NCBI GenBank assembly: GCA_041496385.1
Contig: JBGQEL010000010.1
Span: 7,387 to 71,386, forward strand
Direction: 5' to 3'
Length of the DNA stretch: 64,000 nt
DNA from: Candidatus Methylomirabilia bacterium
GTDB lineage: Bacteria > Methylomirabilota > Methylomirabilia > Rokubacteriales > CSP1-6
The stretch's first letter is position 1. The number at the start of each line of letters is the position of its first letter. A program made the translations under genes and the position numbers. Shown one piece after another: positions 27,683-48,215 of the stretch. Under the pieces are notes generated by a model. It saw only the letters and a program-made list of their open reading frames with translations, was not told where the DNA came from and searched no databases.

Positions 27683-28687
27683 CTACCCCAGCAGCAGCTC
27701 GGCAATCTGCACCGCGTTCGTGGCCGCGCCCTTCCGCAGCTGGTCGCCGACCACCCAGAAGCAGAGGCCGGTCGGGCTCCCGAGGTCCTCGCGGATCCGG
27801 CCCACGAAGCAATCGTCCTGCCCCTCGACCTCCACGGGCATCGGGTAGCGGTGCCGGGCCGGGTCGTCCCAGAGACGGAGCCCCGGGAACCGCGCGAAGA
27901 GCTCGCGCGCCCGCTCGGGCGTCACCCGCGTCTCGGTCTCAGCGGTCACGGCGACGGAGTGGCAGGTGAAGACCGGCACGCGCACGGTCGTGGGCGTGAT
28001 GAGGACGTCCGGCGCCTCGAGGATCTTGCGCGTCTCGTGGACAAGCTTCATCTCCTCGCCCGTGTAGCCGTTCGGCCCGAACGTGTCGATGGCGGGGATC
28101 AGGTTGAAGGCGATGCGGTGCGGGAAGTGGCGCGGCGTCATCGCCTCGCCGCGCGCCCAGGCGAGCGTCTGCTCCCGCAGCTCGGCGATTCCGTTCACGC
28201 CGGCGCCGGAGACCGCCTGGTAGCTCGTGGCGACCACGCGGCGGAGCCGGCCCGCGTCGTGGAGCGGCTTGAGCGGCATGACGGTGACGATCGTGGTGCA
28301 GTTCGGTGACGCGAGGATTCCGCGGTGGCTCTTCGCCGCATGCGCGTTGATCTCGGGAACGACGAGGGGCACGTGGGGATCCATCCGGAACGCGTTCGAC
28401 TTGTCGATGACGGTCGCGCCCGCCCGCACGATCATGGGCGCGTACTCCTTCGACTGGGCCGAGCCCGCAGAGCAGAACGCGATCTCGACGCCCTCGAAGG
28501 CCGCCGGCTCGATGCGCTGGACGCGGACCGGCTCGCCCCGAAAGGTCACGCTCGTGCCGACCGAGCGCTCGGAGGCGAACGCCCGGAGCTCGCGCACCGG
28601 GAACTTCCGCTCCTCGAGGATCCGGAGGGTCATTTGTCCGGCCGCGCCCGTGGCGCCGACCAGGGCGACCGTCACGCCCGATGCCAT
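27683..28687 (-). CDS. asd: Aspartate-semialdehyde dehydrogenase
   Basis: VGATGAAG, SPNCTT, SYQAVSGAG, VRVPV and DQLRKGAATNAVQIAE. Confidence 0.95.
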   Translation of the reverse strand: MASGVTVALVGATGAAGQMTLRILEERKFPVRELRAFASERSVGTSVTFRGEPVRVQRIEPAAFEGVEIAFCSAGSAQSKEYAPMIVRAGATVIDKSNAFRMDPHVPLVVPEINAHAAKSHRGILASPNCTTIVTVMPLKPLHDAGRLRRVVATSYQAVSGAGVNGIAELREQTLAWARGEAMTPRHFPHRIAFNLIPAIDTFGPNGYTGEEMKLVHETRKILEAPDVLITPTTVRVPVFTCHSVAVTAETETRVTPERARELFARFPGLRLWDDPARHRYPMPVEVEGQDDCFVGRIREDLGSPTGLCFWVVGDQLRKGAATNAVQIAELLLG

Positions 28688-29772
28688 CAGTACTGGGCCT
28701 CCACCATCTTCACGATCAGATCCCCCATGGCGCGCGTTCCGACCGGCTTCGTCCCCGCACCCGCGACGTCCGCGGTGCGATGCCCCTGCTCGAGCACCCC
28801 CTGCACCGCCCGCTCGACCCGGTCGGCGTCCTTCTCCATGTCGAGGGAGTATCGCAGGAGCAGGGCCGCCGAGAGGATCGCCGCGATCGGGTTCGCGATC
28901 CCCTTGCCGGCGATGTCCGGCGCCGTCCCGTGCACGGGCTCGTAGAGGCCCACGGTTCCGCCGAGCGACGCCGACGGCAACATGCCCATCGAGCCCGCGA
29001 GAATCGCGGCCTCATCGGACAAAATATCACCGAAGGTGTTCTCGGTCACAATTGTGTCGAAGTGGGTGGGCTTGTGGACGAGCGCCATGGCGCAGTTGTC
29101 CACCAGCACGTGCTCGAGCGCCACGTCCGGGTAGTCCCCTCCGACGCGCGTCACGACCTCCCGCCAGAGCTGCGAGACGACGAGCACGTTCGCCTTGTCC
29201 ACCGAGGCGAGGCGCTTGCGGCGCTTGCGCGCGACCTCGAAGCCCATCCGTGCGATCCGCTCGATCTCCCGCTCCGTGTACACCATCGTGTTGACGGCGC
29301 GCGCCCCGCCGGCGCCGGAGCGCTCGATGCCCCGCGGCTCGCCGAAGTACAGGCCGCCGGTCAGCTCGCGAATGACCATCAGGTCGGTGCCCTCGACGAC
29401 CGACCGCTTGAGCGGCGAGGCGTCGACGAGCATCGGGAAGCACTTCGCGGGGCGCAGGTTCGCGTAGAGGTCGAGCTCCTTGCGCAGCGCGAGAAGCCCG
29501 CGTTCGGGGCGCGTCTCATGCGGGACGTTGTCCCACTTCGGGCCGCCGACCGCGCCGAAGAGGATGGCGTGGGAGGCGCGGCACAGCTCGAGCGCCCCCG
29601 GGGCGAGCGGCCGGCCCGTCGCATCGATCGCGGCGCCGCCCACGAGCGCCTCCTCGAACTCGAAGGCCGCCCCGGTGCCCCTGGCGACCGCCTTCAGCAC
29701 GCGCACCGCCTCCGGGGTGACCTCCTGACCGATGCCGTCGCCGGGCAGGAGCGCGATCTTGTAGGTGGGCAT
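28687..29772 (-). CDS. leuB: 3-isopropylmalate dehydrogenase
   Basis: [49 protein letters not shown] and ANPIAAILS. Confidence 0.95.
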
Positions 29773-29788
29773 CAGGCGCCCACGATCG

Positions 29789-31333
29789 TCATGGCCCGAC
29801 TTCCTTGACGCGCTGGACGGCCGGCTGCGCGATGCGGTTGACCGCCGACAGGTAGGCGCGGGCGCTCGCCTCGATCACGTCGGTCGAGGAGCCCTTGCCC
29901 GAGACGATCGTCCCGTCGAAATCGACCTTCATCGCCACCTCGCCGATCGCGTCCTTGCCCGAGGTCGCCGCGCGCAGCGAGTAGTCCTGGAGCCGGCCCT
30001 TGAGCCCCGTGATCGCGTCGATCGCGGCGAGCACGGCGTCGACCGGGCCGTCGCCGACCCCCGAGTCCTGGAACACCTGTCCGTCCTTCTTGAGCTTCAC
30101 CGTGGCCGACGGCACCACGCCCGTGCCGCTGATGACGTGGAGGTACTCGATCTCGTACCCGGCCACCTGCTGGGTCACCTCGTCGGTGACGATCGCCATC
30201 AGGTCCTCGTCGTAGACCTCCTTCTTGCGGTCGGCGAGGCCCTTGAAGGACTTGAAGGCGCGGTCGAGGTCCACGGCCGGCAGGTCGAAGCCGAGATCCT
30301 TCAGCCGCGCCGCCAGCGCGTGGCGTCCCGAGTGCTTGCCGAGCACGAGCTTGTTCGACGGCCGTCCGATGTCCTCCGGCCGCATGATCTCGTACGTGAG
30401 CTTCTCCTTCAGCACGCCGTCTTGATGGATCCCCGCCTCGTGCGCGAACGCATTCTCGCCGACGATCGCCTTGTTGGGCTGGACGTGCACGCCCGTGATG
30501 TGGGAGAGAAGGCGCGACGTCTTGAAGATCTGCTCGGTCCGCACGCGCGTGTCGACGCCGAAGAAGTCCTTGCGCGTCTTGAGCGCCATCACGATCTCCT
30601 CCAGCGAGGCGTTGCCCGCGCGCTCGCCGATCCCGTTGATCGTGCACTCGATCTGGCGCGCGCCGCTCATGAGCGCCGTGAGGGAGTTGGCGACCGCCTG
30701 GCCGAGGTCGTTGTGGCAGTGCACCGAGAGGACGACGCGGTCGATCCCCTGCACCCGCTCGCGGATCCGCGCGATCCGCTCGCCCCATTCGCGCGGGACC
30801 GCGTAGCCCACCGTGTCCGGAATGTTGATCGTCCCGGCGCCCGCCTCGATGACCGCCGAGAGCACGTCGCACATGTAGTCGAAGTCGGAGCGCGAGGCGT
30901 CCTCGGGCGAGAACTCGACGTCCCCGCAGTACCCCCGCGCGTGCCGGACGGCCTCGACGGAGGCCTTCAGGATCTCGGCGCGCGACTTGCGGAGCTTGTA
31001 CTTCAGGTGGATGTCCGAGGTCGCGACGAAGGTGTGGATGCGCGGCTTGGTCGCGTACTTCACCGCCTCCCAGCAGCGGTCGATGTCGCCGAGCCCGACG
31101 CGTGAGAGGCCGCAGATGGCCGGCGCGCCCTCCAGCGTCCCGACCTGCTTGGCGACCTCGCGTGTGGCCTCGAAATCCTCGTCCGACGAGATCGGGAACC
31201 CGGCCTCGATCACGTCCACCTGGAGCCGGGCCAGCTGGCGGGCCATCTCGAGCTTCTCCATCGTGTTCATCGAGAAGCCGGGCGCCTGCTCGCCGTCCCG
31301 CAACGTCGTGTCGAAGATGATGACGCGATCCAT
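29789..31333 (-). CDS. leuA: 2-isopropylmalate synthase
   Basis: [35 protein letters not shown] and LGKHSGR, plus a C-terminal regulatory domain. Confidence 0.95.
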
Positions 31334-31347
31334 GTGCCCCCCCCGAC

Positions 31348-32145
31348 TCACGGATGCTCCTTGACGTGCTCGATCGGTACGGCAGCGGGCGCCGGCGCGC
31401 GTCCCACGATCAGCCGCCGGACCGGGCCCGAGAGCGCGTACCCGACGAAGATAAGAAACAGGAAGAGCTCGTGGCTCGTGGCCACGATCATGACGCCCAG
31501 CACGACCACCAGCAGCGTCTGCAGCGGCCGGCGGCGCGCGAAGTCGAGCTCCTTGAAGCTCCAGTAGCGAAAGGTCGACACCATCAGCAGCGCGACGAGG
31601 TAGGTGCCGACGGCGATCGAGACGAGCAGCGAGCGCGAGGCGGGCGCGCCCTGGAGCAGGATCACGGCGGAGCCCACCACGCCCGCGGCCGCCGGCGTCG
31701 AGAGGCCGACGAAGTACCGGCGGTCCACCGTGCCCGTGTGGATGTTGAAGCGCGCCAGGCGCAGCGCGCCGCAGATCACGAACAGGAAGGCGCCGAACCA
31801 CGCCGGGCGCCCCAGCGCCGAGAGCGCGAACGAGTAGACGAGAAACGCCGGCGCCACGCAGAACGAGACGACGTCGGCGAGCGAGTCGAACTCCACGCCG
31901 AACTGGCTGGTCGCCTTCATGAGTCGCGCCACGCGCCCGTCCAGAAGATCCATGATCATCGCCACGAAGATCGCGAGCGCCGCCTCCGTGTAGCGATTCT
32001 CGACCGTCAGGAGCAGCGCGAAAAAGCCGCAGAACAGGTTGCCCGTCGTGAGCAGACTCGGGAGCAGGAAGATCCCGCGGCTCCGCTTCTCCCGAAGGTC
32101 GTGCCAGCGCCGCCGCCTGGGTCCCCTGTTGTGCCGCCGGATCAC
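31348..32145 (-). CDS. pssA: CDP-diacylglycerol--serine O-phosphatidyltransferase
   Basis: LPSLLTTGNLFCG, DLLDGRVAR...SQFGVEFDSLADVVSF and ALRLARFN. Confidence 0.93.
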   Translation of the reverse strand: MIRRHNRGPRRRRWHDLREKRSRGIFLLPSLLTTGNLFCGFFALLLTVENRYTEAALAIFVAMIMDLLDGRVARLMKATSQFGVEFDSLADVVSFCVAPAFLVYSFALSALGRPAWFGAFLFVICGALRLARFNIHTGTVDRRYFVGLSTPAAAGVVGSAVILLQGAPASRSLLVSIAVGTYLVALLMVSTFRYWSFKELDFARRRPLQTLLVVVLGVMIVATSHELFLFLIFVGYALSGPVRRLIVGRAPAPAAVPIEHVKEHP

Positions 32146-32771
32146 GCCGCCACTCCGAGCACCGTCACGCCGCCGACGACGCGATCGCCGGCCCGCACGC
32201 GCACGTCCGTCCCGCGCGGCATGACGCAGTCCGTCCGCGAGCCGAAGCGGATCATCCCAAAACGCTCGCCCGCCTCGAGCTTGTCGCCGGGCCCGACGCG
32301 GCACACGATCCGGCGCGCGACGACGCCCGCGATCTGCACGACCGTCACGCGGAGGCTCTCGCCCTGCAGGTGCACGGTGCAGCGCTCGTTCGCCGCCTCC
32401 GCCTCCCGCCGGTAGGCGGCGAGGTACCGTCCGCGCGCATACACGGTACCCACGACGAGGCCCGCGATCGGCGAACGGTTGACGTGGACGTCGAGCGGCG
32501 ACAGGAAGATCGCCACGCGCACGGCCGGCCCCACGAACCGCTCCTCGATCTCGTCCACCGAGAGCACGCGCCCGTCGGCGGGCGCGAGGACGCCGCCCGG
32601 CACCGACGGCACGTCGCGCTCGGGGTCACGGAAGAAGCCGAGCGCGGCGAGCGACGCGGCGGCGAACGGCGCGGCGAGCGCGCGGCGGCCCGTCAGCGCG
32701 AGCCCCGCGGCCACGATGCCCGGGACCAGGATAAAGGGCCAGCCTTCGCGCGCGACGGGGAGCTTCGTCAC
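32142..32771 (-). CDS. psd: Phosphatidylserine decarboxylase proenzyme
   Basis: FFRDPER, APADG, IFLSPLDVHVNRSP, QIAGVVARRI and RFGSR cleavage motif. Confidence 0.92.
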   Translation of the reverse strand: MTKLPVAREGWPFILVPGIVAAGLALTGRRALAAPFAAASLAALGFFRDPERDVPSVPGGVLAPADGRVLSVDEIEERFVGPAVRVAIFLSPLDVHVNRSPIAGLVVGTVYARGRYLAAYRREAEAANERCTVHLQGESLRVTVVQIAGVVARRIVCRVGPGDKLEAGERFGMIRFGSRTDCVMPRGTDVRVRAGDRVVGGVTVLGVAA

Positions 32772-32772
32772 G

Positions 32773-33777
32773 TCACATTCTCGGCGGCTTGATCCAGGAC
32801 ATCATCGCCCGGAGCCGCTTGCCGACGTCCTCGATCGGATGCTCGGCGTCGCGCCGGCGCATCGCGAGGAACCCGGCGCGGTTGGCCTGGTTCTCGAGCA
32901 CCCACTCGCGCGCGAACTGCCCCGACTGGATCTCGCCGAGGATCTTCTTCATCTCGGCCTTCGTCTCGGGGCTCACGATGCGCGGGCCGCGCGTGTAGTC
33001 GCCGTACTCCGCGGTGTCCGAGACCGAGTAGCGCATGTAGGCGAGCCCGCCCTGGTAGAACAGGTCGACGATCAGCTTCATCTCGTGCATGCACTCGAAG
33101 TACGCGACCTCGGGCTGGTAGCCGGCCTCGACGAGCGTCTCGAACGCCGCCTTGATCAGGTGCGAGATACCGCCACAGAGCGCCGCTTGTTCGCCGAAGA
33201 GATCCGTCTCCGTTTCTTCCTTGAACGTCGTCTCGAGCACGCCCGCGCGGGTGCACCCCACGCCCTTGCCGTACGCGAGCGCCATGTCGCGCGCCTTGCC
33301 GCTGACGTCCTGGTAGACGGCGAGCAGCGCGGGGACACCCGGCCCCTGCGTGAACAGGTCGCGCATCACGTGGCCCGGTGCCTTGGGCGCGATCATCGTG
33401 ACGTCCACGTCGGGCGGCGGCACCACCTGGTTGAAGTGGATGTTGAAGCCGTGGGCGAACATCAGCATCTTGCCCTTCCCGAGTCCGCCCTTGATCTCCG
33501 ACTCGAAGACCTGGCGCTGGCTCTGGTCGGGCAGCAGCACCATGATCGCCTCCGCCATCTGGGCGGCCTCGTTCACGGTCGCCACCCGGAGCCCTTCCTT
33601 CTCGGCCTTCGCCCAGCTCTTCGAGCCCTTGTAGAGGCCGACGACGACGTCCAGGCCCGAGTCCTTCAGGTTCAGCGCGTGGGCGTGCCCCTGGCTGCCG
33701 TAGCCGATGATCGCGATCTTCTTGCCCTTGAGCAGGCCGAGATCGGCGTCCTGGTCGTAGTAGATCTTCGCGGGCAT
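32773..33777 (-). CDS. ilvC: Ketol-acid reductoisomerase
   Basis: [36 protein letters not shown] and SDTAEYGD. Confidence 0.97.
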
Positions 33778-33803
33778 CTCGTGTGTCCTTTCGTCTGTGA
33801 GTG

Positions 33804-34378
33804 TTAGTCGGCGAAGCCGACCACCTTCGGATCGTCGGTGACGCGCGGCTTCCGGGGCGCCTCGGCGCGCCGCGCGCGCGTCTTCGGGCCGCGCGCGATC
33901 ACGACCTTGCCCGTCCGCACGACCTCCTGGATCCCCATGGGGCGCAGCAGCTCGACCAGGGCCTCGAGCTTGCCCTCGTCGCCCGTGGCTTCGAGGACGA
34001 ACGAGCTCTGGGTGACATCGATCACGCGCGCCCGGAAGATGTCGGCCGTCCGGAGGATCTCCGCCCGGTTCGACGGTTCCGCGTTCACCCGGATGAGGAC
34101 GAGCTCGCGCTCGACGTGACTCTCGTCGGTGAGATCGGTCACCTTGATCACGTCGATGAGCTTGTGCAGCTGCTTCGTCACCTGCTCGATGACGAACTCG
34201 TCGCCGCGCACGACGAGGGTCATCCGGGAGACCGACGGGTCGAGCGTCTCGCCCACCGACAGGCTCTCGATGTTGTAACCGCGCGCCGAGAACAGCCCGG
34301 CGACCCGCGAGAGGACGCCGAACTTGTTCTCGACCTGGACCGCGATCGTGTGCTTCCGGGGCTCGCTGCCGTTCTGCA

Positions 34379-34379
<1 letters not shown>
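33804..34379 (-). CDS. ilvN: Acetolactate synthase small (regulatory) subunit
   Basis: [33 protein letters not shown] and ERELVLI. Confidence 0.95.
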
Positions 34380-36133
<1,754 letters not shown>

Positions 36134-36190
36134 TGACAGGTCCTCCCAGAGCAGTCCGGCCGTGGCCGGGACTTCCTCGCTGAGTCGGCG

Positions 36191-38896
36191 CTACGCATTC
36201 GGGGCCCCTTCGGCCGACGCCTCGCGCACCTTGAGCCGGGCCTGCGCCGCGCTGAGCCGCGCGATCGGGATCATGAACGGCGAGCACGACACGTAGCTCA
36301 TGTTCACCCGGTGGCAGAACTCCACGGACGACGGCTCGCCGGCGTGCTCGCCGCAGATGCCGATCTTGAGGTCCGGCCGCGTGCGGCGGCCGCGCTCGAT
36401 GCCGATCTTGATCAGCTCGCCGACACCCTCCTGGTCGAGAACCGAGAAGGGATCGTGCGCCAGCACCCCCTTCTGCAGGTAGTCCGGCAAGAACTTCGCG
36501 ACGTCGTCCCGGCTGTACCCGAACGTCATCTGGGTGAGGTCGTTGGTGCCGAAGGAGAAGAATTCGGCGTCCTGCGCGATCTTGTCGGCGATGAGCGCCG
36601 CGCGCGGGACCTCGATCATGGTGCCGATCAGGTACTTGACCGGCACGCCCATCTCCACGAGGACGGCGTCGGCGACCTTCTTGGTGTTGTCGTGCGTGAG
36701 CCGCATCTCACCGACGGTGCCGGTGAGCGGGATCATGATCTCGGGCTCGACCTTCACGCCGCGCTCGGCCACGGTACAGGCCGCCTCCATGATGGCGCGC
36801 ACCTGCATCGCGTAGATCTCGGGCGAGGTGATGCCGAGCCGGCAACCGCGGTGGCCGAGCATCGGGTTGGCCTCGCGCAGCGAATCGATCTTGCCGATCT
36901 TCTCGTCGAGCTCGGCCTGGAGCGCCGGGTTGATGTTGAGCGCCTCGAGGCGCGCCCGCTCCTCGAGCATGTCGCGGTACTCCTTGGGATTCGCGAGGAA
37001 CTCGTGCAGCGGCGGATCGAGGAGCCGGATCGTCACGGGCAGACCATCCATCGCCTCGAAGATTCCGACGAAGTCGTCGCGCTGGAACGGCAGCAGCTTC
37101 TGCACGGCCGCGCGGCGCTTGACATGGTCGCCGGCCATGATCATCTCGCGCATGATCGGGATACGGTCGGCGGCGAAGAACATGTGCTCCGTACGCACGA
37201 GCCCGATGCCCTCGGCGCCGAAGTCGCGCGCCTTCCGCGCGTCCTCCGGCGTGTCGGCGTTGGCGCGGACGCCGAGCGTGCGATACCGGTCCGCCCACGC
37301 CAGGAACTCCTTGAACTCCGGGGCGAGGCCGCCCTCGATGGTCTTCACCGCATCGAGGATCACTTCGCCGCTCCCGCCGTCGATCGAGACGATATCGCCC
37401 TCGCGCACCTTCCGGCCCGCGGCCGTGAAGATCCGCCGCGTCTCGTCGACGACGATCTCCCCGGCGCCCACGATGCAGGACTTCCCCATCCCCACGGCCA
37501 CGACGGCGGCGTGCGACGTCCGCCCGCCGCGCGCGGTCACGATCCCGCGCGACGCGTACATGCCCGCGACGTCCTCCGGCGAGGTCTCCGGCCGGACGAG
37601 GATCACGGCGCGGCCCTCCTTGCCCCACTCCACCGCGCGGTCGGCGTCGAAGACGACCTCGCCCACCGCCGCGCCGGGCGCCGCGGGGAGCCCCCGGGCG
37701 AGCAACCGTCCGCGCGCGATCGCCTGCTCCTTGTCGGCGGCGTCGAAGCCCGGATGAAGCACCTGGTGCAGATCTTGAGGTCGGACGCGCAGGAGCGCCG
37801 TGTGCTGGTCGATGACCGCCTCGTGCACGAGGTCGACGGCCACCTTCACCGCGGCCGCCGCCGACCGCTTGCCGGCGCGAGTCTGGAGCAGGTAGAGCCT
37901 GCCCTCCTGGATCGTGAACTCGATGTCCTGCATGTCCTTGTAGTGACGCTCGAGCCGCCCGGCGATGGCGAGCAGGTCGTCGTAGATCTCCGGCATCCGC
38001 CGCTTGAGGTCGTCGATGTGCTCGGGCGTCCGGATGCCCGCCACCACGTCCTCGCCCTGAGCGTTGGCGAGGAACTCCGCGTAGAAGCGCTGCTCGCCCG
38101 TGCGCGGGTCGCGCGTGAACCCGACGCCGGTGCCGGAGGTCTCGCCGAGGTTCCCGAAGACCATCGCCATCACGCTGACGGCCGTCCCCCAGTCCGCCGG
38201 GATGTTGTTGATCCGCCGGTACTCCGTCGCCTTCTTGCCGAACCAGGAGTCGAACACGGCCTTGACCGCGAGATGCAGCTGTTCCTTGGGATCCTGCGGG
38301 AACGGCGCGCCCGTGCGCGAGCTGACGAGATCCTTGTACGTCTCCGTCAGCTTGCGCAGCTCGGCGGCCGGCACCTCGGGATCGGTTTTGATGCCGAGGC
38401 GCGCCTTGAGCGCGCTCAGGTGCTCGTCGAACACCTCACGCCGGATGCCCAGAACCACGTCGCCGAACATCGTGACGAACCGACGGTAGCAGTCCCAGGC
38501 GAACCGTTCGTTGTGCGTCCACGCGGCGAGCCCCTCGACCGTCGCGTCGTTGAGACCGAGGTTGAGGACCGTCTCCATCATGCCGGGCATGGAGACGCGC
38601 GCCCCCGAGCGGACGGAGACCAGGAGAGGGCGCTTGGGGTCGCCGAGGCCGAGGCCGGCGTCGTGCTCGAGCTTCTCGAGGGCGCCGGCAACCTGCTCCC
38701 ACAGGTCGTCCGGAACCTGCCGCTTCGTCCGGTTGTAGTGCGCCCAGGCCTGCGTGGTGATCGTGAAGCCGGGCGGCACCGGAATGCCGAGGTTCGTCAT
38801 CTCGGCGAGCTCGCATCCCTTGCCGCCCAGGAGGTTGCGCATCACGGACGAGCCTTCAGCCTTGCCCGAACCGAAGGAGTAGACGTACTTGATCAT
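36191..38896 (-). CDS. ppdK: Pyruvate, phosphate dikinase
   Basis: GGKG, SVRSGARVSMPGMM, GGRTSHAAVVA (phospho-His), GLVRTEHMF, FSFGTNDLTQ and GICGEH. Confidence 0.97.
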   Translation of the reverse strand: MIKYVYSFGSGKAEGSSVMRNLLGGKGCELAEMTNLGIPVPPGFTITTQAWAHYNRTKRQVPDDLWEQVAGALEKLEHDAGLGLGDPKRPLLVSVRSGARVSMPGMMETVLNLGLNDATVEGLAAWTHNERFAWDCYRRFVTMFGDVVLGIRREVFDEHLSALKARLGIKTDPEVPAAELRKLTETYKDLVSSRTGAPFPQDPKEQLHLAVKAVFDSWFGKKATEYRRINNIPADWGTAVSVMAMVFGNLGETSGTGVGFTRDPRTGEQRFYAEFLANAQGEDVVAGIRTPEHIDDLKRRMPEIYDDLLAIAGRLERHYKDMQDIEFTIQEGRLYLLQTRAGKRSAAAAVKVAVDLVHEAVIDQHTALLRVRPQDLHQVLHPGFDAADKEQAIARGRLLARGLPAAPGAAVGEVVFDADRAVEWGKEGRAVILVRPETSPEDVAGMYASRGIVTARGGRTSHAAVVAVGMGKSCIVGAGEIVVDETRRIFTAAGRKVREGDIVSIDGGSGEVILDAVKTIEGGLAPEFKEFLAWADRYRTLGVRANADTPEDARKARDFGAEGIGLVRTEHMFFAADRIPIMREMIMAGDHVKRRAAVQKLLPFQRDDFVGIFEAMDGLPVTIRLLDPPLHEFLANPKEYRDMLEERARLEALNINPALQAELDEKIGKIDSLREANPMLGHRGCRLGITSPEIYAMQVRAIMEAACTVAERGVKVEPEIMIPLTGTVGEMRLTHDNTKKVADAVLVEMGVPVKYLIGTMIEVPRAALIADKIAQDAEFFSFGTNDLTQMTFGYSRDDVAKFLPDYLQKGVLAHDPFSVLDQEGVGELIKIGIERGRRTRPDLKIGICGEHAGEPSSVEFCHRVNMSYVSCSPFMIPIARLSAAQARLKVREASAEGAPNA

Positions 38897-38927
38897 GAGC
38901 GCGTGTCTCCCTCACGACAGACAAAAA

Positions 38928-38966
38928 AGTCTTGTAAGACTACAGGATGGAGAGCATTCGCGTCAA
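38928..38966 (-). promoter_or_regulatory. Candidate internal ppdK promoter with an overlapping palindrome
   Basis: TTGACG (38966-38961), 18 nt, TAGTCT (38942-38937); AGTCTT-GT-AAGACT inverted repeat at 38928-38941. Confidence 0.5.
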
Positions 38967-39009
38967 TCTTTCTCACGCCTTCTCCGTTCGAAAGAAGCCT
39001 CGGTCCCTG

Positions 39010-39047
39010 AAAAGCGAAAGGGCCACGGGTCGCTTCACCCGTGGCCC
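39010..39047 (-). terminator. Intrinsic terminator of the attenuator
   Basis: 11-bp stem GGGCCACGGGT/ACCCGTGGCCC with a 6-nt loop, followed by TTTCGCTTTT. Confidence 0.85.
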
Positions 39048-39101
39048 CCAGAGTTTCCATCGCCACGGGCCCATCTCCTGCCCGTGGCATCCGATCTCGC
39101 G

Positions 39102-39185
39102 TTACTTCGCGGATGCTCCGGGCAGGCCCGGCAGCGCCAGCAGAATAATGCCTAGCGATGGTACCCGCGAGGTCATTGACGTCAT
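39102..39185 (-). CDS. Branched-chain amino acid leader peptide MTSMTSRVPSLGIILLALPGLPGASAK
   Basis: 27-aa ORF, absent from the track; control codons GTA...CTA GGC ATT ATT CTG CTG GCG CTG, including AT-ending codons that are rare here. Confidence 0.78.
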   Translation of the reverse strand: MTSMTSRVPSLGIILLALPGLPGASAK

Positions 39186-39220
39186 GGTGAAGGCAGCATA
39201 CGCGTTGACGCGACCGCCTG

Positions 39221-39985
39221 TCAAGATCGCTTGCCCCGTCCCCGCCCCCCCTCGTCGTCCCTGCCGAGCACGAGCTCCTCGACAGCCTCGAGGTGGTCGA
39301 CCATGGCCCGTCGCGCCTCACGCTCGTCGCGCGCGGCGATCGCGGCCAGGATGCGCTGGTGATCCTGGTGCGAACGCGTCGGCCGGCCGGGCGTGTTGAG
39401 CGATTCCTCCCGGCTCTGGGTGAGAAGGTCCATGACCGCGTGCGCGATCCGCGTGATCGCGCGGTTGTGCGCCGCCGCGCCGATGGCCGCGTGGAAGGCC
39501 GCGTCCTGGGTCAGGCCGGTCTTGCCGTCCGCGATCTCGCGCGCCTGCTCCGCGAGGATCCGCTCCATCTCCTGGATCTCCTCCCGGGTGGCGCGCGCCG
39601 CGGCGAGCTCCGCGAGCGCCGGCTCGAGGAGCCGGCGCGCCTCGAAGAGCTCGCCGATCGCCTCGCGCTGCGACGTCATCACCAGCGCGAGCGGCTCGAC
39701 CAGCGCCTCGATCGACACCTCGCGGACGAACGTCCCCTCCCCGGCGCGGATCTCGAGGAGCCCCAGACTTTCGAGCGCGCGCAGCGCCTCGCGGACCGAG
39801 GTGCGGCTCACGACGAACTTCTCGGCCAGGTCGCGCTCGGGCGGGAGCTGATCGCCGCTCTTGAGTCGCCCCTCGGCGATCATCTGCTTGACCTGGCGGA
39901 CGATCTCCTCGTAGATGCGCGTGGACTTGATCGGCGAGAGGCTCACGGTACGGTCGGGGCGCCGCGCGCGCCCACGGGCGGGCAT
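39221..39985 (-). CDS. GntR/FadR-family transcriptional regulator
   Basis: GDQLPPERDLAEKFVVSRTSVREAL wHTH plus FCD domain (DAAFH...AAHN, HQRIL); start may instead be GTG 39946. Confidence 0.93.
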   Translation of the reverse strand: MPARGRARRPDRTVSLSPIKSTRIYEEIVRQVKQMIAEGRLKSGDQLPPERDLAEKFVVSRTSVREALRALESLGLLEIRAGEGTFVREVSIEALVEPLALVMTSQREAIGELFEARRLLEPALAELAAARATREEIQEMERILAEQAREIADGKTGLTQDAAFHAAIGAAAHNRAITRIAHAVMDLLTQSREESLNTPGRPTRSHQDHQRILAAIAARDEREARRAMVDHLEAVEELVLGRDDEGGRGRGKRS

Positions 39986-47376: not shown

Positions 47377-47427
47377 TGGTCGAATGGTCTGACCGGAGAA
47401 TACCCCGGGCGGGGACTGAGCTGTCAA
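47377..47427 (-). promoter_or_regulatory. Promoter and FadR-type operator upstream of the oxidoreductase operon
   Basis: TTGACA (47427-47422), 19 nt, TATTCT (47402-47397); TGGTC-gaa-TGGTCTGACC at 47377-47394. Confidence 0.6.
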
Positions 47428-48215
47428 GGGGCCCTCGACAGGAACCCCTCGAGAGCCCGCGTAAAGGCCTCAGGCTGCTCGATATTCGACAGATGTGACG
47501 CGGACTTGATTATCGTCAGCTCAGATCCGGCGATATGCTCGTGGATCACCCGAGCGGCCGCGACCGGCGTCCCCAGATCATCCTCGCCGACGATGACGAG
47601 CGTCGGGATCTTGATGACGCCGAGCCGATCCGTGAGGTCGAGCTTCGAGATCGCGTGACAGCAGCCGGCGTAGCCCGCGGGGTTCGTTCCTCGGATCATC
47701 GCGGCCACGCGCTGGACGACCTCCGGACGCTTCTCCCTGAAGGGCGGCGTGAACCAGCGGCCCAGCGTGGGCTCGACGAGCGGCTCCATGCCCTGGGTCT
47801 CCGCGGTGCGGATCCGGTCATCCCACGCCGCGCGCATCTCGGGAGGCACGCGGCTGGACGTGTCGCAGAGGGCGAGGCTTGCGAAGAGGCCGGGCGCCTT
47901 GAGCGCGAGGGTCTGGCCGATCATGCCGCCCATCGAGAGCCCGACCCAGTGCGTCTTCGCGATCCCGAGCGCCCCGAGGAGCGCGCGGGCGTCCTCCGCG
48001 AGCTGGTCGAGCGTGTACGCCCCCCGGGGCGCGTCGGTCGCGCCGTGGCCCCGCGTCTCGTACTGGAGCACCCGGTACCGCCTCGCCAGCGCCGTGAGCT
48101 GCGGCTCCCACATGGCGAGCGTGGTCGCAAGCGAATGACTCAGCGTGACCACCGGGGCCCCGGCGGGGCCCTCGAGCGAGTAGTTGACGGAGATCCCGTT
48201 GACCGTGACCTTCAT
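47424..48215 (-). CDS. Alpha/beta hydrolase, 3-oxoadipate enol-lactonase-like
   Basis: SHSLAT, RGHG, GLSMGG nucleophile elbow and SHLSNIEQP. Confidence 0.85.
   Translation of the reverse strand: MKVTVNGISVNYSLEGPAGAPVVTLSHSLATTLAMWEPQLTALARRYRVLQYETRGHGATDAPRGAYTLDQLAEDARALLGALGIAKTHWVGLSMGGMIGQTLALKAPGLFASLALCDTSSRVPPEMRAAWDDRIRTAETQGMEPLVEPTLGRWFTPPFREKRPEVVQRVAAMIRGTNPAGYAGCCHAISKLDLTDRLGVIKIPTLVIVGEDDLGTPVAAARVIHEHIAGSELTIIKSASHLSNIEQPEAFTRALEGFLSRAP

Follow-up and report, generated by a model that had tools for sequence, protein, structure and literature searches.

Organization of the locus

We analysed a 64-kb stretch of contig JBGQEL010000010.1 from a Candidatus Methylomirabilia bacterium of the order Rokubacteriales (hereafter the window), in which ppdK, the gene for pyruvate phosphate dikinase (PPDK), lies between an amino-acid attenuator and the acetolactate synthase gene ilvB. 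The genome that contains the window (G000, 4.56 Mb, 70.8% G+C) is assigned by the genome library to family f1, which comprises dozens of genera of uncultured organisms. Coordinates are window positions throughout; the genes of the locus all lie on the minus strand, on which they were checked.

The first cistron is ppdK (36191..38896), with its ATG at 38896 and its stop codon TAG at 36193-36191. Its product is a PPDK by its full-length match to TIGR01828 (1309 bits for a cut-off of 843, residues 3-888 on profile positions 2-865). After a spacer of 57 nucleotides (nt; 36134..36190) come ilvB-ilvN-ilvC-psd-pssA-leuA-leuB (28687..36133) and then asd (28687-27683), identified gene by gene through NCBIfam equivalog matches (TIGR00118, 824 bits, for the ilvB product). 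The open reading frames (ORFs) from ilvB to asd are 0-26 nt apart or overlap. The spacer is measured to the GTG at 36133 and would come to 63 nt with ilvB starting at the ATG two codons further on.

Upstream, a gene for a FadR-subfamily GntR regulator (39221..39985; Pfam GntR, 5.9e-23; FCD, 1.9e-27) closes the neighbouring oxidoreductase/TTT-transporter operon. Its start is approximate, the long ORF extending to 40195 and overlapping the TerC gene; NanR, LldR and PdhR are the nearest NCBIfam models, each below its cut-off. The stop codon of this gene abuts the -35 element of P1 (39195..39224, TTGACA-18-TATGCT), the predicted promoter of a leader region (39008..39185) that comprises a Leu/Ile leader peptide, MTSMTSRVPSLGIILLALPGLPGASAK, alternative hairpins and an intrinsic terminator. 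A second putative promoter, P2, of sigma-70 type (38937..38966, TTGACG-18-TAGTCT), follows the terminator and precedes ppdK. A conserved box with the consensus aAAGaCTTTTTcg (38923..38935) lies at its predicted transcription start.

An earlier note on this DNA had placed the end of ppdK 57 nt before ilvB with no U-tailed terminator between them, P2 at 38966-38937, and an inverted repeat AGTCTT-N2-AAGACT at 38941-38928. The coordinates agree with these statements. A terminator scan of positions 35900-39400 gave a single hit, the attenuator terminator at 39049-39018, and none between ppdK and ilvB or between P2 and ilvB. The 57-nt spacer contains no T-tailed hairpin and folds no better than its shuffles (z = +1.2). 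No Rfam family matched anywhere in the window.

Gene order in Rokubacteriales and beyond

Using tblastn, we located ppdK, ilvB, ilvC, the regulator gene and an intervening gene in 22 loci of family f1, in further loci of families f1 to f4 and in 30 loci from other orders of the class. The layout of most f1 genera, including two other genomes of the window's genus, consists of the regulator gene, P1 with the attenuator, P2, ppdK, a gene for a 295-residue protein of the DHDPS family (hereafter the aldolase gene) and ilvBNC. A second layout differs from the first by the absence of the attenuator and was found in f1 genera g4, g5, g7, g8 and g16, in f2, in f3 and in f4 genera g26 and g29. A third layout, in which the regulator gene is followed by a P2-like promoter, the aldolase gene or its remnants and ilvBNC, with ppdK elsewhere, is restricted to f4 genus g28. 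The fourth is the first layout with the aldolase gene deleted; it is that of the window and of loci L002, L003, L006, L013-L015, L031 and L032. The aldolase gene has been lost from the attenuator-free locus L030 too.

Twenty of the 22 ppdK loci of f1 carry ppdK, the aldolase gene where present and ilvB in this order on one strand, as do G008 and G017. Of the two exceptions, L016 is cut by a contig end, and in L026 (G009, genus g8) ilvC directly follows the aldolase gene, ilvBN being missing. The order P2-ppdK-aldolase-ilvB was also observed in f2 (G025), f3 (G026) and f4 (genera g26 and g29), and an ortholog of the regulator gene lies directly upstream of P2 or P1 in f1, f3 and f4. In the f3 locus (L164), ppdK, the aldolase gene and ilvB are each split in two, by frameshifts, as pseudogenes or through assembly errors.

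At the loci from other orders of the class, the gene before ilvB is ilvD or one for a membrane protein, the latter together with a promoter; we found there no ppdK, aldolase gene, FadR ortholog, leader ORF rich in branched-chain codons or match to R1, the covariance model of the attenuator described below. Outside the phylum, only 2 of 78 ppdK loci have an ilvB-like gene within 6 kb, neither of them in this arrangement. Our literature search returned no paper that connects ppdK with an ilvB operon and none that treats PPDK in Rokubacteria.

In a tree of PpdK, the ppdK genes are orthologous and monophyletic across the order, and in the window the GC content of ppdK (0.66-0.71) is like that of its neighbours. 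A recent horizontal insertion of ppdK in the window was rejected on these two grounds, orthology across the order and the lack of a GC anomaly. The unlinked ppdK of g28 (L017, L019-L025) nests within the f1 crown with strong support (100/100 for the g28 clade, 96/91 for its sister relationship to L031). It appears to be a horizontally acquired xenolog that replaced the copy resident in the operon. In some g28 genomes, a decaying aldolase gene is found between P2 and ilvB. The PpdK of the window groups with genera g22 and g23 and with the metagenome-assembled genome SMAG_U3913, not with G001 and G002 of its own genus, which suggests either recombination at the locus or a loose genus assignment.

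The ppdK-ilvB junction

In G001 and G002 the aldolase gene is intact. The stop codon of ppdK overlaps its start (ATGCGTAG; ccATGCGTAGcgtcgaa...), and it ends with ...GGAAGTCCTGGCGACGGCCGGACTGCTCTAGGAGGA, its stop codon lying 12 nt before the GTG of ilvB. Alignment with these two genomes shows what remains in the window. A 5' remnant, ATGCGTAGCG... (ATGCGTAGCGCCGA...), overlaps the ppdK stop codon, and a 3' remnant, ...GGAAGTCCCGGCCACGGCCGGACTGCTCTGGGAGGA, corresponds to the last codons (ATAGLL) together with the Shine-Dalgarno sequence of ilvB. On this alignment the 57-nt gap is evidently the scar of a deleted aldolase gene. The possibility that a hairpin in the spacer serves as a processing or terminator element was rejected, as the hairpin belongs to what remains of the 3' end of the aldolase gene and the spacer folds no better than shuffled sequences.

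The scars of other lineages have different boundaries and measure 16 to 364 nt in the coordinates of this comparison; two of them are filled by a repeated element. The differing boundaries indicate that the middle gene was lost independently several times, ppdK and ilvB staying joined. In all, the aldolase gene has been lost at least five times while ppdK was kept next to ilvB. The repeated element, of about 95 nt (..GGGGGTATGGGGGCCATGTCGGGGCCCC..GAGGAGCGCCCCGGGTACCCCGGGGCGCTGCCGAGCGG..), replaces the deleted gene in two genera (L002:4182-4546 and L014:4182-4328, oriented coordinates). It is present as two tandem copies in L002 and resembles a small mobile or REP-like repeat.

The G001 ortholog of the deleted gene was compared with proteins of the PDB. 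It scored 239 bits with human 4-hydroxy-2-oxoglutarate aldolase HOGA1 (3s5n/3s5o) and 137 bits with the best DHDPS, and its TIGR00674 (dapA) score of 170 is below the cut-off of 206. By these scores the deleted gene would have encoded a HOGA-like enzyme, closer to HOGA than to DapA or NanA. No ortholog was found elsewhere in G000, where the best match is 32% identical.

The attenuator and promoter P1

P1 is the sole hit of the promoter scan, with 10 of 12 matches to the consensus hexamers, and relatives keep it as TTGAC-N18-TATACT. The leader ORF has 27 codons and contains the sequence LGIILLAL. The segments GCCACGGGC, GCCCGTGGC, GGCCACGGG and CCCGTGGCC can pair in alternative ways, and the terminator consists of the stem at 39049-39018 followed by a T-run. 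The leader folds better than shuffled sequences (z = -3.9), and almost all stem columns are invariant in an alignment of 21 sequences. The region thus has the short ORF, clustered regulatory codons, alternative pairings, T-tailed terminator and conservation of a leader-peptide attenuator. It does not, however, control the first structural gene directly. P2 intervenes between the two, and in all attenuator-bearing relatives it sits 42-250 nt beyond the terminator.

We built the covariance model R1 from the 21 sequences. R1 scores 85-152 bits in most f1 genera, exceeds 85 bits in f1 only and gives weak matches elsewhere. In f2, f3, f4 and the f1 clade g4/g5/g7/g16, R1 matched nothing upstream of P2. 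The attenuator-free families f2 and f4 together form the sister group of f1 on the PpdK tree, and even the earliest branches within f1 carry the attenuator. It may have been gained once on the f1 stem and then lost twice, or gained once at an earlier time and lost three or four times; the two scenarios are close by parsimony. On both, the attenuator is no older than the P2-ppdK-ilvB unit, and it adjoins ilvB in none of the loci examined.

A second R1 match in G000, on contig C28 (17562-17695, minus strand) and thus outside the window, is a different attenuator of related architecture: a leader rich in Phe, Tyr and Trp, MGSPARWSSFVTFFYFAEVCPGTLT, and a terminator are found upstream of a DAHP synthase gene. 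The weaker R1 matches in most Rokubacteriales genomes are probably this DAHP-synthase attenuator. In the attenuator-free f1 clade (L161, L162, L029 and L030, of genera g7, g16, g5 and g4), P2 reads TTGACA-N17-TAGCAT and the 5' untranslated region (UTR) is longer, with a GGCCC-N4/5-GGGCC hairpin and TGTCTTTTTCT, while PpdK has an Arg/Lys-rich N-terminal extension of about 20 residues. This 5' UTR could be a different leader device.

The earlier note had proposed that ppdK, bringing its promoter with it, entered an ancestral unit in which the attenuator directly preceded ilvB, and that gene order in relatives would tell. Two observations are in line with this proposal: the window has the layout attenuator, promoter, ppdK, ilvB, ppdK ending just 57 nt before ilvB, and outside the order ppdK almost never adjoins ilvB. 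The comparison of gene orders nevertheless speaks against it. All 30 best R1 matches are followed by ppdK, and the attenuator directly precedes ilvB in none of the examined loci. P2-ppdK-aldolase-ilvB is found in families f1 to f4, and the attenuator is confined to a part of f1; f2, f3 and f4 have the former without the latter. No leader precedes ilvB in the outgroup orders, ppdK does not stand out in composition, and the 57-nt junction is a deletion scar, not an insertion joint. Moreover, in g28 P2 still precedes the aldolase gene and ilvB although ppdK has gone from the locus, and P2 therefore belongs to the operon rather than to ppdK. An insertion of ppdK, with promoter and operator, into an attenuator-ilvB junction is thus very unlikely.

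Promoter P2

The earlier note had also proposed a separate promoter downstream of the attenuator terminator, and this proposal is borne out by conservation. The alignment of 34 distinct orthologous sequences gave the P2 consensus aTTGACa-N4-tGc-N5-ATCC-N2-TAg..T-t.aAAGaCTTTTTcg, in which TTGAC, three positions of the -10 element (T1, A2 and T6) and the spacer length of 18 nt do not vary. Two relatives have an extended -10 element instead (TGnTAGAAT or TGnTAATAT). In f3 and f4, a homologous promoter, tttcgccTTGACA...GGTTTnGnTGCTAnnnT, is followed by (A/G)GACTTT. P2 thus has hexamers within the 16-18 nt spacing of sigma-70-type promoters and at a conserved orthologous position. In attenuator-free relatives it is the only recognisable promoter of the operon. 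Judging from this conservation, P2 is a genuine and old promoter of the operon. Its start is predicted at about 38929-38931, 6-8 nt past the -10 element, in agreement with the start near 38930 expected in the earlier note.

The AAAGACTTTTTCG box at the predicted start has been kept together with the spacer motifs TGC and ATCC in the 34 relatives. We examined whether these two motifs are general promoter features of the organism and rejected this idea: among the 152 TTGACN-N16-18-TAnnnT sites of G000, P2 alone has both ATCC and TGC. In G001, G002 and G004 (L010, L012 and L007), the ATG of ppdK lies 19 nt past the -10 element of P2. Compared with the window, about 21 nt are deleted there, including the Shine-Dalgarno sequence, which leaves ppdK with a U-rich 5' UTR of about 12 nt.

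The palindrome and the conserved box

The sequence AGTCTT-AC-AAGACT at 38941-38928 is followed by six T residues. With at most one mismatch, this palindrome occurs once in the window and in none of 100 shuffles; the palindrome and AAGACTTTTT each have a single copy in the whole 4.56-Mb genome. Its left arm consists of positions 2-6 of the -10 element and one more T, and its right arm (38933-38928) and the T-run fall within the conserved box. The box is nearly invariant in the 34 sequences, the T-run being as conserved as GAC. The dyad, in contrast, is not conserved as such. Paired positions amount to 73.0% of cells, and shuffling that preserves columns gives 72.9%; at the two central positions pairing fails in about half of the sequences; the sole compensatory case is AGCCTT/AAGGCT in G004; and the dyad is perfect in 7 of 34 sequences. 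We therefore rejected the palindrome as a conserved dyad, the right arm alone being conserved. The perfect palindrome of the window is, from these counts, apparently incidental. No box regulon emerged: AAGACTTTTT occurs once in G000, and extra copies in 40 relatives are no commoner than those of a reversed control pattern.

A 6-bp inverted repeat with six T residues directly after it might also act as a second, weak intrinsic terminator that trims read-through from P1 before ppdK. The hairpin is AU-rich with a 2-nt loop, however, and is not part of the minimum-energy fold in its 36-nt context (-5 kcal/mol in total); it fails the terminator scan, and its left arm varies freely in relatives without compensation. 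Lacking the stable GC-rich stem that, with a U-tract, defines an intrinsic terminator, being negative in the scan and having unconserved arms, the palindrome was rejected in this role, which we hold to be extremely improbable.

Candidate factors at P2

The promoter-specific conserved positions of P2 span about -29 to +12. They are most likely the mark of a factor that recognises the core-promoter sequence, of a 5'-terminal mRNA element, or of both.

A FadR-like repressor that senses a carboxylate (pyruvate, glyoxylate or oxalate) could gate P2 by binding to the palindrome or to the +1 box. Its gene would be the regulator gene found directly upstream of P2 or P1 in three families. The box, between the -10 element and +12, is in the classic position of a repressor site, and its uniqueness in the genome fits a local regulator. 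The likely operator of this regulator is GGTCnGACCA, which we found just past the -10 element of the promoter of the upstream oxidoreductase/TTT-transporter operon (window 47380-47430) and which is conserved in f1 and f4 relatives (L199-L208, with two copies in L200). The g28 box, GGTTAGACT or GATCAGACT, matches 6 of the 8 specified positions of GGTCnGACC, which is only suggestive, and its distance from the -10 element equals that of the operator from the -10 element at the upstream operon promoter.

At the P2 of f1, however, this operator is missing, and AGAC alone is shared with it. The half-sites are separated by 6 nt in the window palindrome and by 1 nt in the operator. The palindrome contains no GGT-N(1-3)-ACC dyad with conserved or covarying arms, as would be expected of a FadR-type operator; its pairing does not exceed that of shuffles, and few sequences have it in perfect form. 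G033 keeps P2 and the box even though a different gene precedes P2, and the adjacency of the regulator gene may reflect the conserved synteny of two operons. The earlier suggestion that the perfect palindrome is an operator thus finds no support, since its arms do not covary and it does not match the FadR-type operator of the neighbouring operon. Gating of P2 by the adjacent repressor is unlikely, although far less so than the insertion of ppdK discussed above, and binding of the FadR-like regulator to the window P2 would be about equally unlikely.

Alternatively, the conserved AAGACUUUUUCG may act in RNA, as a U-rich translation enhancer, a ribosome standby site or a stability element for the first cistron, and not as a DNA operator. 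The box begins at the predicted +1 and its T-run is as conserved as GAC; in G001, G002 and G004 it makes up approximately the whole 5' UTR, which has no Shine-Dalgarno sequence; and the attenuator-free f1 clade has a pyrimidine tract, GTCTTTTTC, at a more distal position of its 5' UTR. Such a role would leave TGC and ATCC, in the untranscribed spacer, unexplained. In addition, the g28 box is less U-rich (AGACTTTGC), and our analysis revealed neither a sequence nor a structure that could be the partner of the box; a hairpin with the left arm would form only in RNA read through from P1 and is weak there. We regard an RNA-level role as a tentative possibility, at least as likely as binding of the FadR-like regulator.

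The signature of about 40 bp as a whole, TGC-N5-ATCC with AAAGACTTTTTCG at +1, might also be the site of a putative regulator of the pyruvate node, a proposal that we put forward with reserve. If it is true, Rokubacteria use an unusual arrangement to control a combined PPDK and branched-chain operon, with a regulated main promoter downstream of an attenuated auxiliary one. Read-through triggered by starvation would then add to, or interfere with, initiation at P2 controlled by carbon status.

A model for the operon

We consider it probable that ppdK is the ancestral first gene of a pyruvate/branched-chain operon of Rokubacteriales, driven by P2, with the attenuator of f1 placed upstream and the aldolase gene deleted in the window. 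The ancestral gene order would be ppdK, HOGA-like aldolase gene, ilvBNC, psd, pssA, leuAB and asd. The conserved sigma-70-type promoter P2, just downstream of the FadR-like gene that ends the neighbouring operon, would drive this unit. The Leu/Ile leader-peptide attenuator of family f1, preceded by P1 as a promoter of its own, sits upstream of P2, and in the lineage of the window the loss of the aldolase gene left the 57-nt scar.

P1 transcripts would reach ppdK-ilvB only upon read-through of the attenuator terminator, while P2 transcripts, beginning at about 38930 past the terminator, would escape attenuation. A conserved P2 beyond the terminator and a tight, terminator-free ppdK-ilvB junction imply that the operon can receive two inputs. 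It would thus sum an amino-acid-gated input from P1 and a second input from P2. Two-input control by an attenuated P1 and an unattenuated P2 is plausible on this arrangement.

Several points weigh against this model. The -10 element of the window P2 matches the consensus at only 3 of 6 positions, which puts P2 below the threshold of the promoter scan, and its -35 element is TTGACG. Gene order, conservation, the scar and the distribution of the attenuator can be read directly from the sequences, whereas we infer the activity of P2, its start site, a factor acting on it and the co-transcription of ppdK with ilvB from sequence, and ilvB may have an internal promoter of its own within the 3' end of ppdK. 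Finally, the parsimony comparison for the origin of the attenuator is close, and the PpdK tree is a gene tree with at least one transfer.

Metabolic context

The operon gathers makers and users of pyruvate: the aldolase (pyruvate and glyoxylate), PPDK, acetolactate synthase and isopropylmalate synthase. In G000, the assembly of which is rated 100% complete, we detected neither a pyruvate kinase (TIGR01064) nor a phosphoenolpyruvate (PEP) synthase. This would fit the supply of pyruvate by PPDK, a possibility raised in the earlier note. Pyruvate kinase is present in 34 of 41 relatives, including congeners, so that its absence from G000 may be an assembly gap; either this is the case, or PPDK is the sole enzyme that interconverts PEP and pyruvate in G000. 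The distribution of pyruvate kinase among the relatives led us to reject the replacement of this enzyme by PPDK as a general rationale for the linkage. Across the order, PPDK more likely works from pyruvate to PEP.

Significance and comparison with known systems

Rokubacteria, which are uncultured, are abundant in soil. At this locus, the central-carbon gene ppdK and the branched-chain pathway are joined across the order in an arrangement maintained by selection. The locus has a promoter, P2, that is unusually well conserved and carries a cis-element private to it; the attenuator precedes this promoter instead of standing between promoter and genes. P1, the attenuator, P2 and the box are concrete parts for heterologous tests. 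The locus alters no general principle, and it calls for caution in automated annotation: where a leader precedes an operon, some transcription of the operon may still bypass that leader.

Leader-peptide attenuators of ilv genes are known from ilvBN and ilvGMEDA of E. coli and from ilvBNC of Corynebacterium glutamicum. The region described here resembles them in its short leader ORF rich in Leu, Ile and Val codons, its mutually exclusive hairpins and Rho-independent terminator, and its position upstream of acetolactate synthase genes. It differs in that its terminator is separated from ilvB by a complete, conserved promoter and the 2.7-kb ppdK, ancestrally accompanied by the aldolase gene. Some transcription of the operon would therefore start beyond the attenuator.

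Operators of FadR-subfamily GntR regulators of the PdhR, LldR and GlcC type have the form TGGT-N3-ACCA. GGTCnGACCA at the upstream operon fits this type. The P2 palindrome shares with such operators its shortness and its position just past a -10 element and near a FadR-family gene, but AGTCTT-N2-AAGACT has another half-site spacing and an unconserved left arm.

In the ilv-leu operon of B. subtilis, a T-box leader is combined with CcpA, CodY and TnrA at the promoter, so that an amino-acid-dependent termination switch is joined to carbon and nitrogen inputs. The two-input logic is that proposed in the earlier note. However, ilv-leu has one promoter, upstream of the switch, whereas here the second promoter lies downstream of the switch and a central-carbon gene leads the operon. 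Promoters that escape attenuation are known from E. coli, where trp p2 and the internal promoters of ilvGMEDA allow distal genes to be transcribed from beyond the attenuator at an unattenuated basal level. P2, with its predicted start downstream of the attenuator, is comparable to them. The E. coli promoters are weak, are located within coding regions and act on distal genes only, whereas P2 is intergenic, strongly conserved and placed in front of all structural genes. The locus thus combines known kinds of elements, an attenuated amino-acid operon and a promoter that bypasses the attenuator, with a stable gene fusion of an unusual sort and a cis-element private to P2.

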